UHGV virus genome: UHGV-1493261
Reading direction: 5' to 3' (one strand)
Source of the DNA: a virus
Length of the DNA: 64,000 nucleotides
The translations under genes and the position numbers were made by a program. The notes beneath the pieces were generated by a model. That model was not told where the DNA came from. It was given only the letters and a program-made list of their open reading frames with translations, and ran no database searches. This document shows, piece by piece, positions 26,230 through 29,594 of the stretch (within the stretch, counting starts at the first letter, position 1; every line of letters begins with the position of its first letter).

Positions 26230-26889
26230 ATGTCCTACTCCCTGAAGGGGCTGATGAAGCGCCCCGTCCACACATTCTTTAAACCACCCGTCGTAAAGGG
26301 GATCTACCCAGCACGAGGGCAAATCTACTACGTCAAAGGCTCCAATGGTAGCGGTAAATCCACTGTGCCGTCTCAGCTGGCGGAGAGGGATCCTCAGGCG
26401 TATGTCGTGACCCATAACGGCAAGGTAATGCTGACTGTCTGTCCTTCGTTCAACGTGGTCTGTATCGGTAAATATGACAAGTCGAAGTCCAAGGGGGTTG
26501 ATTCCCTGAAGGACACTGAGCAGATGTTGTTCGCGTTGTCTATTGCTGACCAACCAGAATACTTGAAATATGATGTGATTTTCGAAGGTATCATTCCATC
26601 CACATTATTGAGTTCTTGGATCCCCCGTCTGACACGCCCACCACGTGAATTGGTTGTGCTCTTTATGGACACTCCTCTTGAAACGTGTATCACCCGCGTT
26701 AAATCACGTAACGGCGGTGTGGACTTCAATGAAAGTCTGGTGGTCGAGAAGTGGGAGAGAGTTCATGACCATCGTCAACGACATAAAGACTTGTTCCCTA
26801 CGGTGGCTGCGGGTATGATGAAGTCTCACGGCCTAACAGTAGACCAGGCTGTGATGGCATTCCTCTGTCGTGATTTTGGGAGTATCTGA
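26230..26889 (+). CDS. P-loop kinase of unknown substrate (candidate nucleotide or DNA-base kinase)
   Basis: Walker A GSNGSGKST; directly upstream of the ThyA-family gene with TGATG overlap. Confidence 0.5.
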   Translation: MSYSLKGLMKRPVHTFFKPPVVKGIYPARGQIYYVKGSNGSGKSTVPSQLAERDPQAYVVTHNGKVMLTVCPSFNVVCIGKYDKSKSKGVDSLKDTEQMLFALSIADQPEYLKYDVIFEGIIPSTLLSSWIPRLTRPPRELVVLFMDTPLETCITRVKSRNGGVDFNESLVVEKWERVHDHRQRHKDLFPTVAAGMMKSHGLTVDQAVMAFLCRDFGSI

Positions 26890-27935
26890 TGGAAATCAAA
26901 GCAATAAACAACAATGACATGCTGAAACAGGCTGTCTTGGCTATCCGTGAATTCGGGATCGAATCTGATCCTGGTAATGCTGAAATCAATACTGATAGCA
27001 CCCGCTTCCTTGATGGCGTGACCATAACCGTCGCCGACATCCGTGACCGCTGGCTATCCGTTGAAGGTCGTAACTCATCGGCTATCGCCGCCATCGGCGA
27101 GACCTTCTGGGTTCTGTCCGGGCGCGATGACGTTCGCTTCCTGTCCCGCGTGTTGCCCCGCGCCGCCAACTTTTCCGACAACGGCCACACATGGCGAGCT
27201 GCTTATGGTCCGCGTCTGTACGCTCATGGTCAGCTGGATAGCGTTATCAACCGCCTGCGCAAGAATCCAAACACTCGCCAGGCGTACCTCACCATCTATG
27301 ATCCGGCTCTGGATTCAGATGCTGGTCTGGCGAAGTTCAGTGAGAGTGGCGAAGCAAAGACCAAGGACATGGTGTGTAACCTGGCTCTGTTGTTCGCCAT
27401 CGTTGAAGGTCGCCTGAACCTGACGGTTATCAATCGCTCACAGGATGTTCTGTGGGGTATGAGTTCAATCAACTTCATTGAGTTCTCTATTCTTCAGGAA
27501 GTGATTGCTCGGGTGTTGGATGTTGACGTCGGCCAGTACAAGCTCTTCTCCAACAATCTTCATTACTACAACAATGAAGTCAGCCAGAAGCAGCTGGGCA
27601 AGATCACGAAGGACACCAAAGTAGAAGCTGGGTTCATCAACTCCATGATCCACTTCACGAACGTGACCAACCAGAACCATATCCGCGATCTGTTCACTGG
27701 CGTGCTTGTTCATTGTGACTTCGGTAGCCCTTGGGAAACTGTTGTTGCCTTCCTGAAGGAGTATGATGCGGATCGCGGTCTGATTGTGCAGATGGCATAC
27801 TGCCTGCACTGCAAATTGAATAACAAGCTCATTAACCTGGACCTGATTCAGGATCATGGATTGAACACCGCGCTCACCCATTCTCCGGTTGACCGCAAGA
27901 TCGTTGATCCTAAGTTCCTGGAAGGTGTAGTATGA
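26889..27935 (+). CDS. thymidylate synthase-family enzyme (pyrimidine hydroxymethylase-like), 348 aa with C-terminal extension
   Basis: ThyA-like blocks WRAAYGPRL, YLTIYDP, INRSQDVLWGMSSINFIEF; the conserved Cys is followed by Asn (VCN) where I recall ThyA having PCH. Confidence 0.7.
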   Translation: MEIKAINNNDMLKQAVLAIREFGIESDPGNAEINTDSTRFLDGVTITVADIRDRWLSVEGRNSSAIAAIGETFWVLSGRDDVRFLSRVLPRAANFSDNGHTWRAAYGPRLYAHGQLDSVINRLRKNPNTRQAYLTIYDPALDSDAGLAKFSESGEAKTKDMVCNLALLFAIVEGRLNLTVINRSQDVLWGMSSINFIEFSILQEVIARVLDVDVGQYKLFSNNLHYYNNEVSQKQLGKITKDTKVEAGFINSMIHFTNVTNQNHIRDLFTGVLVHCDFGSPWETVVAFLKEYDADRGLIVQMAYCLHCKLNNKLINLDLIQDHGLNTALTHSPVDRKIVDPKFLEGVV

Positions 27936-28501
27936 TGTACCCAAATCTTGAATTCTTTACGGGGCGCAAGCGTTCCGGTAAGGACTTCTGTTTGGAGTCC
28001 CTCATCAGATATCACCAACTACAGGGTGATATGGACATCCAGCGCCTTTCGTTCTCAGATGAACTGCGCCGGGTTGCCAACTTCATCTATCCATGGCTGC
28101 CAGCGGAGGTAGAGGATGCCGTGAAGGACGTTCCTTACGACCACCCTGATAACCCCAAGGGCTTAACCCCACGGCAGATCTGGCTTCATCTAGGCAGCGA
28201 TACGGGCTTACGTTACGTACAACCCGATCTGTTCCTGGCGTTCTTCAAGCGCTTCCAGCTTCCTCTGGTAGAGCAGAACCCCCACGTCCATTATATCGTG
28301 AGCGATCTGCGTACCCCTCAGGAATATGAATGGGCGCTGAGTACGAAATGTCCTATCACCCGTATTTCAAAGGCCGATCGTGCTGGTATCATAGAGGACG
28401 ATATAGAGGCTTTCATTGACCAAATGAAAGTGGACTACGAATTCCTCAATCCATTTGATGGTTGGGAACCGTTCGTTAAATTCTACGGAGAACGTAAATG
28501 A
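27932..28501 (+). CDS. 1: deoxynucleoside monophosphate kinase, T4 gp1-like
   Basis: GRKRSGKD P-loop matching my recollection of T4 gp1 (GVKRSGKDT). Confidence 0.65.
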   Translation: MMYPNLEFFTGRKRSGKDFCLESLIRYHQLQGDMDIQRLSFSDELRRVANFIYPWLPAEVEDAVKDVPYDHPDNPKGLTPRQIWLHLGSDTGLRYVQPDLFLAFFKRFQLPLVEQNPHVHYIVSDLRTPQEYEWALSTKCPITRISKADRAGIIEDDIEAFIDQMKVDYEFLNPFDGWEPFVKFYGERK

Positions 28502-29052
28502 TCACAGCAGGGCATATCAAAAGCCTGCTCGAACTCCAAAAGGCCACTAACGTGGCCTACTTTGGGGAAGAGTGGAAGAATGTATGGAGTCAGAACGCAG
28601 TTATCAACTCCATCTATCGTGAGTGGGCAGAGTTCCTTGATGAAACCACCCGTGACTGGAAGGTCTATGGCAACGACATCGGGTTTGACCATACGAACGC
28701 AGTTTATGAACTGGTGGACGTGGTACACTTCATGTTGTGCTTCATCCTTGTGGACCGCACCAAAGGTGAGATCGAAGAAGAATTTGAAGTCCTGAGTAAT
28801 CGCGAATTCACCCCATCTGCTTTGGGTGTTGTAGGGCATCGCAATGTTACGTACCGCCTTGGGCAATTCATGAACGATCCTTGCGTTGAGACTCTCATGT
28901 TCTTCCTGTCGTCTGCGTGTTCTTATATGGAGATCGACATTGAGACTTACATACTGGCGCACAAACGCAAGAACGATCGCAATCGTCTGCGTGCTTCTGG
29001 TGGTGCGGATTACGACAAGTCCGCAGAAACCCCTCTGACCCTGGAGTTCTAA
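28498..29052 (+). CDS. all-alpha NTP pyrophosphatase (dCTPase/dUTPase-like, gp56-like)
   Basis: Helical acidic motifs (EWAEFLDE, ELVDVVH); position in the nucleotide cluster. Confidence 0.4.
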   Translation: MITAGHIKSLLELQKATNVAYFGEEWKNVWSQNAVINSIYREWAEFLDETTRDWKVYGNDIGFDHTNAVYELVDVVHFMLCFILVDRTKGEIEEEFEVLSNREFTPSALGVVGHRNVTYRLGQFMNDPCVETLMFFLSSACSYMEIDIETYILAHKRKNDRNRLRASGGADYDKSAETPLTLEF

Positions 29053-29594
29053 TGTTTACAGTCGTCGTTTCATACCATGCGGAGAACGCTGCTCAGGCAT
29101 CCTCCAAATTCGCCGAGCACATCATCGGCGGCGGCCATAATGTATTCCTTACCGAATACAACAGGCCTGTTAAACCGGGCGACGGTCTTTCGGCGACTGT
29201 TACGCATAAGATCGCCAGCGAGCAACCAGAGTCTCTGTTCAGAATGATCGAAGAGTATGCCAGTGGTGGCATCAAGATACCAGATGAACTGGTAGACGTT
29301 TATTTTGAAGGCTCGATCTATTATATCCACGCTATGCCAAAGGATGTAACCATTGAACAGATGATGTATATCCTGAATATAGCACTGAACACTGCGTGCA
29401 TCAACCGCACGAACTACAACAATCTGCGCAATATGTACCTAACCGACCGACATAATGAAGCACCGTCACCTATTGAGACGATGTCCCTGAAGAGCATCCA
29501 AGAGGCGGTTAACATTTTGTCCCAGAAGGTTATGGGTGTAGACTTACTAACGACGATTAACAACAAAGAGGAAGTGAAATGGCCAGTTCATTAA
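29052..29594 (+). CDS. hypothetical protein (180 aa) in the nucleotide-modification cluster
   Basis: ORF; no motif recognised. Confidence 0.45.
   Translation: MFTVVVSYHAENAAQASSKFAEHIIGGGHNVFLTEYNRPVKPGDGLSATVTHKIASEQPESLFRMIEEYASGGIKIPDELVDVYFEGSIYYIHAMPKDVTIEQMMYILNIALNTACINRTNYNNLRNMYLTDRHNEAPSPIETMSLKSIQEAVNILSQKVMGVDLLTTINNKEEVKWPVH

Follow-up and report, generated by a model that had tools for sequence, protein, structure and literature searches.

The five genes located at positions 26230-29594 on the plus strand very probably encode the nucleotide-pool half, together with the first DNA-level step, of the thymidine hypermodification pathway of the Ackermannviridae. The DNA stretch of 64,000 nucleotides analyzed in our study (further on, the window) originates from an Agtrevirus-like phage of this family, showing nucleotide identity to Escherichia phage AV101 (OQ973471.1) of 98.8% in the cluster and 97.6% in the right-hand 24.5 kb. 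All five open reading frames, which a first-pass annotation had placed just upstream of uvsX, were found at exactly the coordinates first noted, and each has a strong family match. In order, they correspond to a predicted 5-hydroxymethyl-dU DNA kinase (5-HMUDK, gene 1), a putative ThyA-family dUMP 5-hydroxymethyltransferase (gene 2), a T4-type dNMP kinase (gene 3), a dimeric-type dUTPase/NTP pyrophosphohydrolase (gene 4) and an ACT-like protein (gene 5), with uvsX (29579-30664) as the next gene. Overlaps between successive genes through uvsX amount to 1, 4, 4, 1 and 16 nt (TGATG, ATGA, ATGA and TAATG at the first four junctions), and a GGAG-like Shine-Dalgarno sequence lies upstream of each start in the cluster. 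Given these sequences and the 1-4 nt overlaps within the cluster, close packing, or the translational coupling initially proposed, describes the arrangement fairly well. The whole block is present in the same order in 267 phage records of the Ackermannviridae type, and chance is therefore no explanation for the cluster. Between the preceding gene (25315-26154) and the cluster, a consensus scan predicted a terminator-like hairpin with a T-run on the plus strand (26186-26206), showing a 9-bp stem containing 5 GC pairs and followed by CTTTTGTTTT, which would thus represent the 5′ boundary of the cluster. Scanning for sigma-70 promoters resulted in 14 sites compared to 10.2 ± 3.4 in shuffled sequence, which is no better than chance, so no promoter is claimed. 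PADLOC gave no meaningful matches. A profile search among 1.84 billion representatives found 17 clusters, where the sole non-phage-like match, P0023 (1702 aa), was rejected as a repeat-protein artefact devoid of a Pfam match.

In regard to the DNA-level step, gene 1 (26230-26889, 219 aa) is, as judged by homology, a 5-HMUDK orthologous to gp67 of Salmonella phage ViI. Its comparison with profiles of known 5-hmdU DNA kinases, suggested in the first-pass annotation, revealed a full-length member of PF18748 (HMUDK_HMUD1), with E = 1.6e-108 and 361.1 bits against a cut-off of 27 bits, spanning profile positions 1-195 of 196. The protein is 88% identical to ViI gp67 (YP_004327432) over its full length of 219 aa, and the two genes occupy the same genomic position. 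Phosphorylation of 5-hmdU in DNA was shown for ViI gp67, which has been included among the 5-hmdU DNA kinases (PMC8989533). The GSNGSGKST motif, already recognized as that of a P-loop kinase, was located at residues 37-45 of the translation, where it forms the Walker A motif (G37-SNGSGKS-T45). The search of PDB sequences with gene 1 gave P-loop-only matches with E > 0.008. Gene 1 adjoins the putative dUMP hydroxymethyltransferase gene with a 1-nt overlap, and such proximity of the two genes is typical for the family (PMC5889632).

The predicted activities could be arranged into a pathway of five steps. First, a dCMP deaminase encoded elsewhere in the window and the dUTPase-type pyrophosphatase would supply dUMP. 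As suggested by its residues and homology, gene 2 would then convert dUMP to 5-hmdUMP using methylene-THF, while gene 3, by analogy with T4 gp1, would act with the host NDP kinase to give 5-hmdUTP, presumably incorporated into DNA by the phage polymerase. In the fourth step, gene 1 would move the gamma-phosphate of ATP onto the 5-hydroxymethyl group of DNA-borne 5-hmdU, forming 5-PmdU, a reaction shown for the 88%-identical ViI gp67 (PMC8989533). The last step would require enzymes encoded outside the window: an aGPT-Pplase2 serine:DNA transferase producing O-serinyl-T, and a PLP-dependent decarboxylase that would turn it into 5-(2-aminoethoxy)methyl-dU (5-NeOmdU) at a fraction of thymidines. 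This step was shown in ViI, and orthologs of both enzymes are present in AV101. By analogy, 5-NeOmdU is most likely the end product. It was chemically identified in phages ViI, CBA120, CBA6 and 1.255.O, where it accounts for about 40% of T (PMC5889632), and in Taipeivirus phiHS2, at 16% (bioRxiv 10.64898/2026.05.19.726188). For Agtrevirus DNA, no nucleoside analysis was found in the literature.

The true amino-acid:DNA transferase and the decarboxylase are expected beyond the window. When ViI gp226, gp243, gp247 and gp160 were compared with the 64-kb window by tblastn, nothing better than E = 0.2 was obtained, which places the serine:DNA transferase, the decarboxylase, a second kinase and a second transferase outside it, and no aGPT-Pplase was detected in it. 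Likewise, the Pfam scan of the 20 other large ORFs of the window revealed no transferase or PLP enzyme, only housekeeping functions (topoisomerase II subunits, the deaminase, an Ig-domain protein, RuvC and HTH). Three of these four later enzyme types, gp226, gp243 and gp247, were searched for in AV101, where all have intact orthologs (91.6, 84.5 and 89.5% identity, respectively) that begin about 2.7 kb past the right end of the window. With the later genes absent from the window, the end product proposed here is thus deduced from a relative that is 97.6-98.8% identical.

It is also conceivable, albeit improbable, that the phage stops at 5-hmdU, as SPO1 or SP8 do and as older papers on the Ackermannviridae assumed, the kinase then being without downstream partners. 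Such a scenario would agree with the absence of transferase and decarboxylase genes from the window, with the AV101 paper, which speaks only of hydroxymethyluracil substitution (PMC10791037), and with the small amount of 5-hmdU left in ViI DNA (PMC6449724). However, the serine:DNA transferase, PLP decarboxylase and second-kinase genes all have intact orthologs in AV101, a conserved 5-HMUDK would be purposeless without downstream steps, and 5-NeOmdU is present in every chemically tested Ackermannviridae phage.

Gene 2 (26889-27935, 348 aa) is the only gene of the thymidylate synthase (TS) family in the window. It matches PF00303 (1.5e-15, 57.5 bits; cut-off 24.3 bits) and phrog_3676 (5.7e-181), and its product is 100% identical to the AV101 counterpart and 75% identical to ViI Vi01_060c. 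The NCBIfam equivalogs of thymidylate synthase, whose cut-offs run from 108 to 427 bits, reached 56.6 bits at most (56.6, 52.8 and 40.2 bits, with cut-offs of 327, 174.55 and 108.35, respectively). As these scores are far under the cut-offs, we infer that gene 2 is a dUMP hydroxymethyltransferase forming 5-hmdUMP rather than an ordinary thymidylate synthase. In the alignment with homologs including T4 gp42, T4-like td and those of M6-like and SPO1-like phages, the catalytic C163 is invariant, together with R130, R183, S184, D186, H225 and Y227. N195 shares its column with an Asn in thymidylate synthase (T4-like td) and in the M6-like and SPO1-like homologs. The T4 gp42 residue in this column is Asp, Asn being the uracil type and Asp the cytosine type. 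The alignment with thymidylate synthase 6auj agrees with this placement. We take the pyrimidine-discriminating position to be N177 in the numbering of E. coli TS and D179 in that of T4 gp42. Furthermore, the motifs PCNL and NRSxDxxWG occur both in gene 2 and in the two hydroxymethyltransferase-type homologs from M6-like and SPO1-like phages, the catalytic Cys being followed by Asn in all three and by His in td. The C-terminal extension of about 110 aa in gene 2 is absent from thymidylate synthases. The best PDB match was the hydroxymethylase MilA (7.8e-18), thymidylate synthases following at 1.4e-8 or weaker, and annotations of the nearest phage matches outside the Ackermannviridae include "deoxyuridylate hydroxymethyltransferase".

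A T4-like route to hydroxymethyl-cytosine, with gene 2 as dCMP hydroxymethylase, gene 4 as dCTPase and gene 3 acting on hm-dCMP, would be suggested by the resemblance of the gene set to T4 genes 42, 56 and 1, by the hydroxymethylase preceding uvsX and gene 41, an order also seen in T4, and by MilA being a cytosine-nucleotide hydroxymethylase. We nevertheless consider this route very unlikely. Gene 2 carries Asn195, as do thymidylate synthases and the 5-hmdU-type phage homologs, and not the Asp of T4 gp42. Its identity to gp42 in the alignment is 17%, and tblastn of gp42 against the window gave no match at E < 0.01, leaving no detectable similarity to this enzyme. In addition, the family of the adjoining kinase is specific for DNA-borne 5-hmdU, the dCMP needed as substrate would be drained by a dCMP deaminase, and in ViI-type DNA it is T, not C, that is modified (PMC5889632). 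The general expectation of a hydroxymethyl-pyrimidine route with a P-loop kinase acting on DNA-borne 5-hmdU is thus supported by PF18748, by the 88% identity to ViI gp67 and by the uracil-type Asn. The first-pass annotation regarded the modified base as unreadable from sequence. In fact, sequence comparisons identify it as thymidine, modified via 5-hmdU.

Ordinary nucleotide metabolism, with gene 2 as a normal thymidylate synthase and gene 1 as a thymidylate kinase or small terminase subunit, would follow from phrog_800 "terminase small subunit" (3.3e-68) and phrog_761 "thymidylate kinase" (5.6e-7) matches of gene 1 and from GenBank and RefSeq records naming "thymidylate synthase", "terminase small subunit" and "putative thymidylate kinase", but is hardly credible. 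Of the 511 positions in the phrog_800 profile, the match spans just 4-220, and in ViI the genuine small terminase is found beside the large one (Vi01_162c). The match to the curated family PF18748 is full-length at 1e-108, and 5-hmdU in DNA is phosphorylated by the ViI protein that shares 88% identity with gene 1 (PMC8989533). Gene 2, in turn, reaches 56.6 bits where the equivalog cut-off is 327, and has its C-terminal extension of about 110 aa.

Gene 3 (27932-28501, 189 aa) matches phrog_139 (3.3e-47), is 90% identical to ViI Vi01_059c ("dnk") and contains the P-loop G11-RKRSGK-D18. It has no match in Pfam, NCBIfam or PDB sequences, and its putative assignment as a T4-type dNMP kinase comes from the PHROG profile. 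By analogy, it would convert 5-hmdUMP to 5-hmdUDP. Gene 4 (28498-29052, 184 aa) matches PF08761 dUTPase_2 (5.8e-9, 36.9 bits, cut-off 22.9 bits) over profile positions 2-159 of 162, as well as phrog_173 (5.8e-40) and the dimeric dUTPase of Campylobacter, 1w2y (1.3e-3). It is 61% identical to ViI Vi01_058c and has the ELVDxxHF motif in common with T4 gp56, while the NCBIfam dUTPase equivalog gave 29.7 bits versus 300. As an enzyme of the all-alpha dimeric type, it would convert dUTP to dUMP, feeding the hydroxymethyltransferase, and could possibly act on dTTP as well, giving dTMP. The dCMP deaminase noticed earlier at 44114-44623 was confirmed there on the minus strand (T4 Cd-like; PF00383, 4.3e-16). 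Its orthologs are labelled "Cd allosteric enzyme" in AV101 and dCMP deaminase in ViI (Vi01_030), and it would represent a distant accessory part of the pathway that supplies dUMP.

Gene 5 (29052-29594, 180 aa), initially described as an uncharacterised protein, is neither a transferase nor a kinase. It matches PF24021 (ACT_phage) at 7.4e-79, and its beta-alpha-beta-beta-alpha-beta arrangement corresponds to an ACT-like (ferredoxin-like) fold, with generic structural matches that pointed to no ligand site. The protein is 56% identical to its ViI counterpart, with a highly conserved stretch in the C-terminal 35 residues. The family occurs almost only in the Ackermannviridae, where the gene is always located between the dUTPase gene and uvsX. 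The literature search for PF24021 or ACT_phage gave no results, and a protein of this type is not among the components of the published pathway reconstitutions that were consulted. Gene 5 is best viewed as a conserved operon passenger. It is conceivable, though rather doubtful, that it represents an overlooked sixth component of the pathway. As a regulatory or scaffolding subunit, it might sense serine, the side-chain donor, or a pyrimidine nucleotide, and its conserved C-terminal residues might dock the hmdU-nucleotide enzymes on the replication/recombination machinery. Alternatively, it might set what fraction of thymidines is modified.

The cluster as such is nothing new: it is a system published in 2018-2021, here re-identified in a new AV101-like isolate, and the Agtrevirus phages AG3 and SKML-39, as well as LIMEstone, were already listed as having 5-HMUDK and dUMP hydroxymethyltransferase (PMC5889632). 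The pathway is relevant for Ackermannviridae as phage therapy candidates, for efforts to sequence and clone their DNA, and for enzyme tools in DNA functionalisation. About 70% of type II restriction enzymes are ineffective against phage DNA modified in this way (PMC6449724). Public annotations are poor, offering "terminase small subunit", "thymidylate kinase", "thymidylate synthase" or "hypothetical protein".

Known systems resemble the cluster to different degrees. The hmC route of T4 (gp42, the gp56 dCTPase/dUTPase, gp1 and glucosyltransferases) employs the same superfamilies of nucleotide-pool enzymes, and in both phages the hydroxymethylase lies upstream of uvsX and gene 41. However, the T4 pyrimidine is cytosine, with Asp instead of Asn at the specificity position, and decoration is by glucosylation, with no kinase step. 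Phages M6 and PaMx11 (Pseudomonas), PhiW-14 (Delftia) and SP10 (Bacillus) follow the same logic, from hydroxymethyltransferase through 5-hmdU DNA and 5-HMUDK to aGPT-Pplase, and the M6-like hydroxymethyltransferase, 27% identical to gene 2, has active-site motifs in common with it. These phages use other nucleophiles and tailoring (glycine with radical SAM, putrescine, glutamate), resulting in 5-NedU, putrescinyl-T or glutamyl-T, and their clusters are devoid of the ACT-like gene. AV101 is the closest relative, yet not the same isolate, and its genes 1, 3 and 5 are annotated as hypothetical. In ViI, the 5-NeOmdU pathway comprises the gp67/gp243 5-HMUDK, the dUMP hydroxymethyltransferase, the gp247 serine:DNA transferase and the gp226 PLP decarboxylase (Lee et al. 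2018, PMC5889632; Lee et al. 2021, PMC8989533). ViI belongs to the genus Kuttervirus in the Cvivirinae and the window phage is Agtrevirus-like in the Aglimvirinae, and the QueC-like gene Vi01_023 of ViI has no counterpart in the window. Nevertheless, Vi01_061c to 057c, or to 056c with uvsX, are syntenic with the cluster gene for gene, in the same order of kinase, ThyA-like, dnk, dUTPase, ACT-like and uvsX (88, 75, 90, 61 and 56% identity for the five cluster proteins), and the dCMP deaminase is found in the same genome neighbourhood.

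The first-pass annotation had placed five plus-strand ORFs upstream of uvsX, and all of them are present exactly where it put them: a 5-hydroxymethyl-dU (5-hmdU) DNA kinase (gene 1, 26230-26889, 219 aa), a ThyA-family protein (gene 2, 26889-27935, 348 aa), a T4-type dNMP kinase (gene 3, 27932-28501, 189 aa), a dUTPase-type pyrophosphatase (gene 4, 28498-29052, 184 aa) and an ACT-like protein (gene 5, 29052-29594, 180 aa), directly followed by uvsX (29579-30664). From gene 1 through uvsX, consecutive genes overlap by 1, 4, 4, 1 and 16 nt (TGATG, ATGA, ATGA, TAATG), and a GGAG-like Shine-Dalgarno sequence lies ahead of every gene start in the cluster. 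Just upstream of gene 1, a strong terminator-like hairpin (26186-26206) has a 9-bp stem and a subsequent T-run (CTTTTGTTTT); it lies 24 nt ahead of the kinase start codon. No sigma-70-like promoter was found between this hairpin and the kinase start, and the cluster may be transcribed by read-through past the hairpin or from a phage-specific promoter. As to the source, Escherichia phage AV101 (Ackermannviridae, Aglimvirinae) shares 98.8% identity with the cluster and 97.6% with the right-hand 24.5 kb, so the window belongs to an AV101-like phage. Other Agtrevirus and Limestonevirus phages (for example Ag3, SKML-39 and the Dickeya phages) show 90-96% identity over the cluster, and the block is carried by 267 phage records.

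Gene 1 belongs to the 5-hmdU DNA kinases (PF18748, full-length match, E=1.6e-108, 361 bits); its Walker A motif is G37-SNGSGKS-T45. Its ortholog in Salmonella phage ViI (Vi01_061c = YP_004327432 = 'gp67', 88% identical) is listed as a 5-hmdU DNA kinase by Lee et al., and phosphorylation of 5-hmdU in DNA has been reported (PMC8989533). In RefSeq and PHROG-derived annotation this kinase is called 'terminase small subunit' (phrog_800) in Vi01, SKML-39, Ag3, MK-13 and P46FS4, and elsewhere the same kinase, whose ViI copy lies at 38203-38865 of that genome (L002), is recorded as 'thymidylate kinase' or 'hypothetical protein'. Both the terminase and the thymidylate kinase labels are contradicted by the curated Pfam family, by the biochemistry of ViI gp67 and by the genuine small terminase of ViI, Vi01_162c, which adjoins the large terminase. 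The wrong labels trace to a heterogeneous PHROG in which the match spans just positions 4-220 of 511, and 'terminase small subunit' appears to be an error that has spread from record to record.

Gene 2 belongs to the thymidylate synthase superfamily (PF00303, 1.5e-15; phrog_3676, 5.7e-181) and is the only gene of this kind in the window, where a search for homologs of T4 gp42 gave no match. The protein was aligned with five references, namely the ViI ortholog; two further phage homologs, one from an M6-like phage and annotated 'deoxyuridylate hydroxymethyltransferase', the other from an SPO1-like Bacillus phage, where it is annotated thyA; the dCMP hydroxymethylase of T4, gp42; and td, the thymidylate synthase of a T4-like phage. 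Besides the catalytic Cys163, residues R130, R183, S184, D186, H225 and Y227 are conserved. At the position that discriminates between pyrimidines gene 2 has Asn195, with Asn also in td and in the M6-like and SPO1-like homologs, and with Asp in the same column of T4 gp42. Gene 2 has in common with the M6-like and SPO1-like homologs a C-N dipeptide after the catalytic Cys and an NRSxDxxWG motif, and it carries a C-terminal extension of ~110 aa that thymidylate synthases lack. Among solved structures, its closest homolog is the hydroxymethylase MilA (7.8e-18), thymidylate synthases following at 1e-8 or weaker, and it scores 56.6 bits against the NCBIfam thymidylate synthase equivalogs, whose cut-offs are 108-427 bits. 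Judged from these residues and homologies, together with the adjacent 5-hmdU-specific kinase, the substrate of gene 2 is predicted to be dUMP and the modified base thymidine. The base had initially been regarded as unreadable from sequence; Asn195, the affinity to MilA, the low thymidylate synthase scores and the neighbouring kinase make it readable.

Among the pool enzymes, gene 3 has its match in the PHROG of T4-type dNMP kinases (3.3e-47). Gene 4 encodes a pyrophosphatase of the dimeric all-alpha dUTPase type (PF08761, 36.9 bits with the cut-off at 22.9 bits), which matches the Campylobacter dUTPase 1w2y and shares an ELVDxxHF motif with T4 gp56. The dCMP deaminase noted earlier at 44114-44623 on the minus strand is real (PF00383, 4.3e-16). 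A candidate second pyrophosphatase at 53359-53937 (minus strand) is 50% identical to ViI Vi01_011, annotated 'MazG-like pyrophosphatase', and has no Pfam match at E<0.001; a third MazG-like gene of ViI, Vi01_131c, adjoins gp160. The QueC-like gene Vi01_023 of ViI (15375-16037), compared here with the window region 44600-48300, sits between dexA and the dCMP deaminase; tblastn over the whole window (E<0.01) revealed no counterpart of it. In a divergent metagenomic relative (L006, Logan SRR15674960 contig), the ThyA-like, dNMP kinase, dUTPase, ACT-like and uvsX genes follow in cluster order (4697-7534). Ahead of its ThyA-like gene the 5-hmdU DNA kinase gene is absent, with just a 40-aa ORF there, and the 8 kb examined gave no kinase match; the gene may be located elsewhere in that genome or may be absent.

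Gene 5 belongs to PF24021, 'Phage ACT-like domain' (7.4e-79), and corresponds to phrog_3839 (unknown function). The family is very small: a search of 5.8 billion proteins gave 13 clusters, and one of 1.84 billion representatives gave 17 (at 50% identity), one of these 17 being a repeat-protein artefact. ViI and two divergent metagenomic relatives, L006 among them, likewise have an ACT-like gene flanked by the dUTPase gene and uvsX, and it diverges much faster than the kinase (42% vs 87% identity in one of these relatives, L005). Its most conserved part is formed by the C-terminal 35 residues (146-180), 19 of which are invariant compared with 5 of 58 in the N-terminal third, and AlphaFold pLDDT there is mostly below about 50. 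Since only the last 16 nt of the gene overlap uvsX, the overlap does not explain this conservation, and the segment could be a docking tail. We found no literature on the family, and within the finding the ACT-like gene alone lacks an existing explanation.

The window lacks counterparts of four distal pathway genes of ViI: the PLP decarboxylase gp226, the second kinase gp243, the serine:DNA transferase gp247 (aGPT-Pplase2) and the aGPT-Pplase1 gp160. In AV101, orthologs of gp226 (2306-3487, 91.6% identity), gp243 (11265-12176, 84.5%) and gp247 (12740-13972, 89.5%) begin ~2.7 kb past the right end of the window (window x = AV101 80638 - x), and in ViI gp160 lies ~25 kb beyond the other end. Going by AV101 synteny, the present phage would carry its own gp226-, gp243- and gp247-type genes within roughly 15 kb past position 64000. 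The AV101 GenBank record (L004 2306-3493) starts the gp226 ortholog at 2591 (300 aa) and has an opposite-strand ORF annotated at 2267-2560; the tblastn match of gp226 is unbroken across 2306-3487 (residues 30-423), and the gene probably begins upstream of the annotated start. The three downstream orthologs in AV101 contradict a reading in which the DNA holds plain 5-hmdU and is not decorated any further. With the distal genes absent from the window and these three present in AV101, the end product is inferred, strongly, to be 5-(2-aminoethoxy)methyl-dU (5-NeOmdU). In the pathway leading to it, dUMP would be supplied by the dCMP deaminase and the dUTPase-type enzyme, and converted by the ThyA-family enzyme into 5-hmdUMP, as its residues and homology suggest. 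By analogy to T4, the dNMP kinase and host NDP kinase would then produce 5-hmdUTP for incorporation by the phage polymerase. The 5-hmdU in DNA would be phosphorylated by the gene 1 kinase, as shown for the 88%-identical ortholog, and the serine:DNA transferase followed by the PLP decarboxylase, encoded outside the window, would yield 5-NeOmdU, as shown in ViI. The interpretation in the first-pass annotation, a phage making hydroxymethyl-pyrimidine DNA and possibly decorating it as in phages with hypermodified thymidine, is supported by the PF18748 kinase with its ViI ortholog and by the uracil-type residue of the ThyA-family enzyme.

The cluster is an already known system, published in 2018-2021 with the Agtrevirus lineage explicitly named, and the pathway was reviewed in 2024 (PMC11721090). 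We found no direct chemical analysis of Agtrevirus DNA in the literature, and the remaining value lies in this chemistry, in the poor public annotation of the cluster genes and in the conserved ACT-like gene. In ViI (NC_015296), six genes, Vi01_061c to 056c, follow the order of genes 1-5 and uvsX in the window, with 88, 75, 90, 61 and 56% identity for genes 1-5, respectively. 5-NeOmdU replaces ~40% of thymidines in ViI, CBA120, CBA6 and Vibrio phage 1.255.O (PMC5889632) and is present at ~16% in a Taipeivirus (bioRxiv 10.64898/2026.05.19.726188), and the modified ViI DNA is resistant to ~71% of type II restriction enzymes (PMC6449724). The 5-hmdU DNA kinase co-associates with dUMP hydroxymethyltransferase, and its carriers in the 2018 paper include PhiSboM-AG3, SKML-39 and LIMEstone (PMC5889632). 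Asn195, the kinase family to which gene 1 belongs and the chemistry of these orthologous phages all contradict a hydroxymethyl-cytosine route of the T4 kind. In gene order, T4 (L007 8387-12220) has gene 42, b-gt, segA, uvsX, 40 and 41, which the window parallels at 26889-32402 with the hydroxymethyltransferase and, further on, uvsX, a small ORF and the primase-helicase; the two phage groups seem to have inherited this placement of the hydroxymethylase, ahead of uvsX and gene 41, from a common ancestor.
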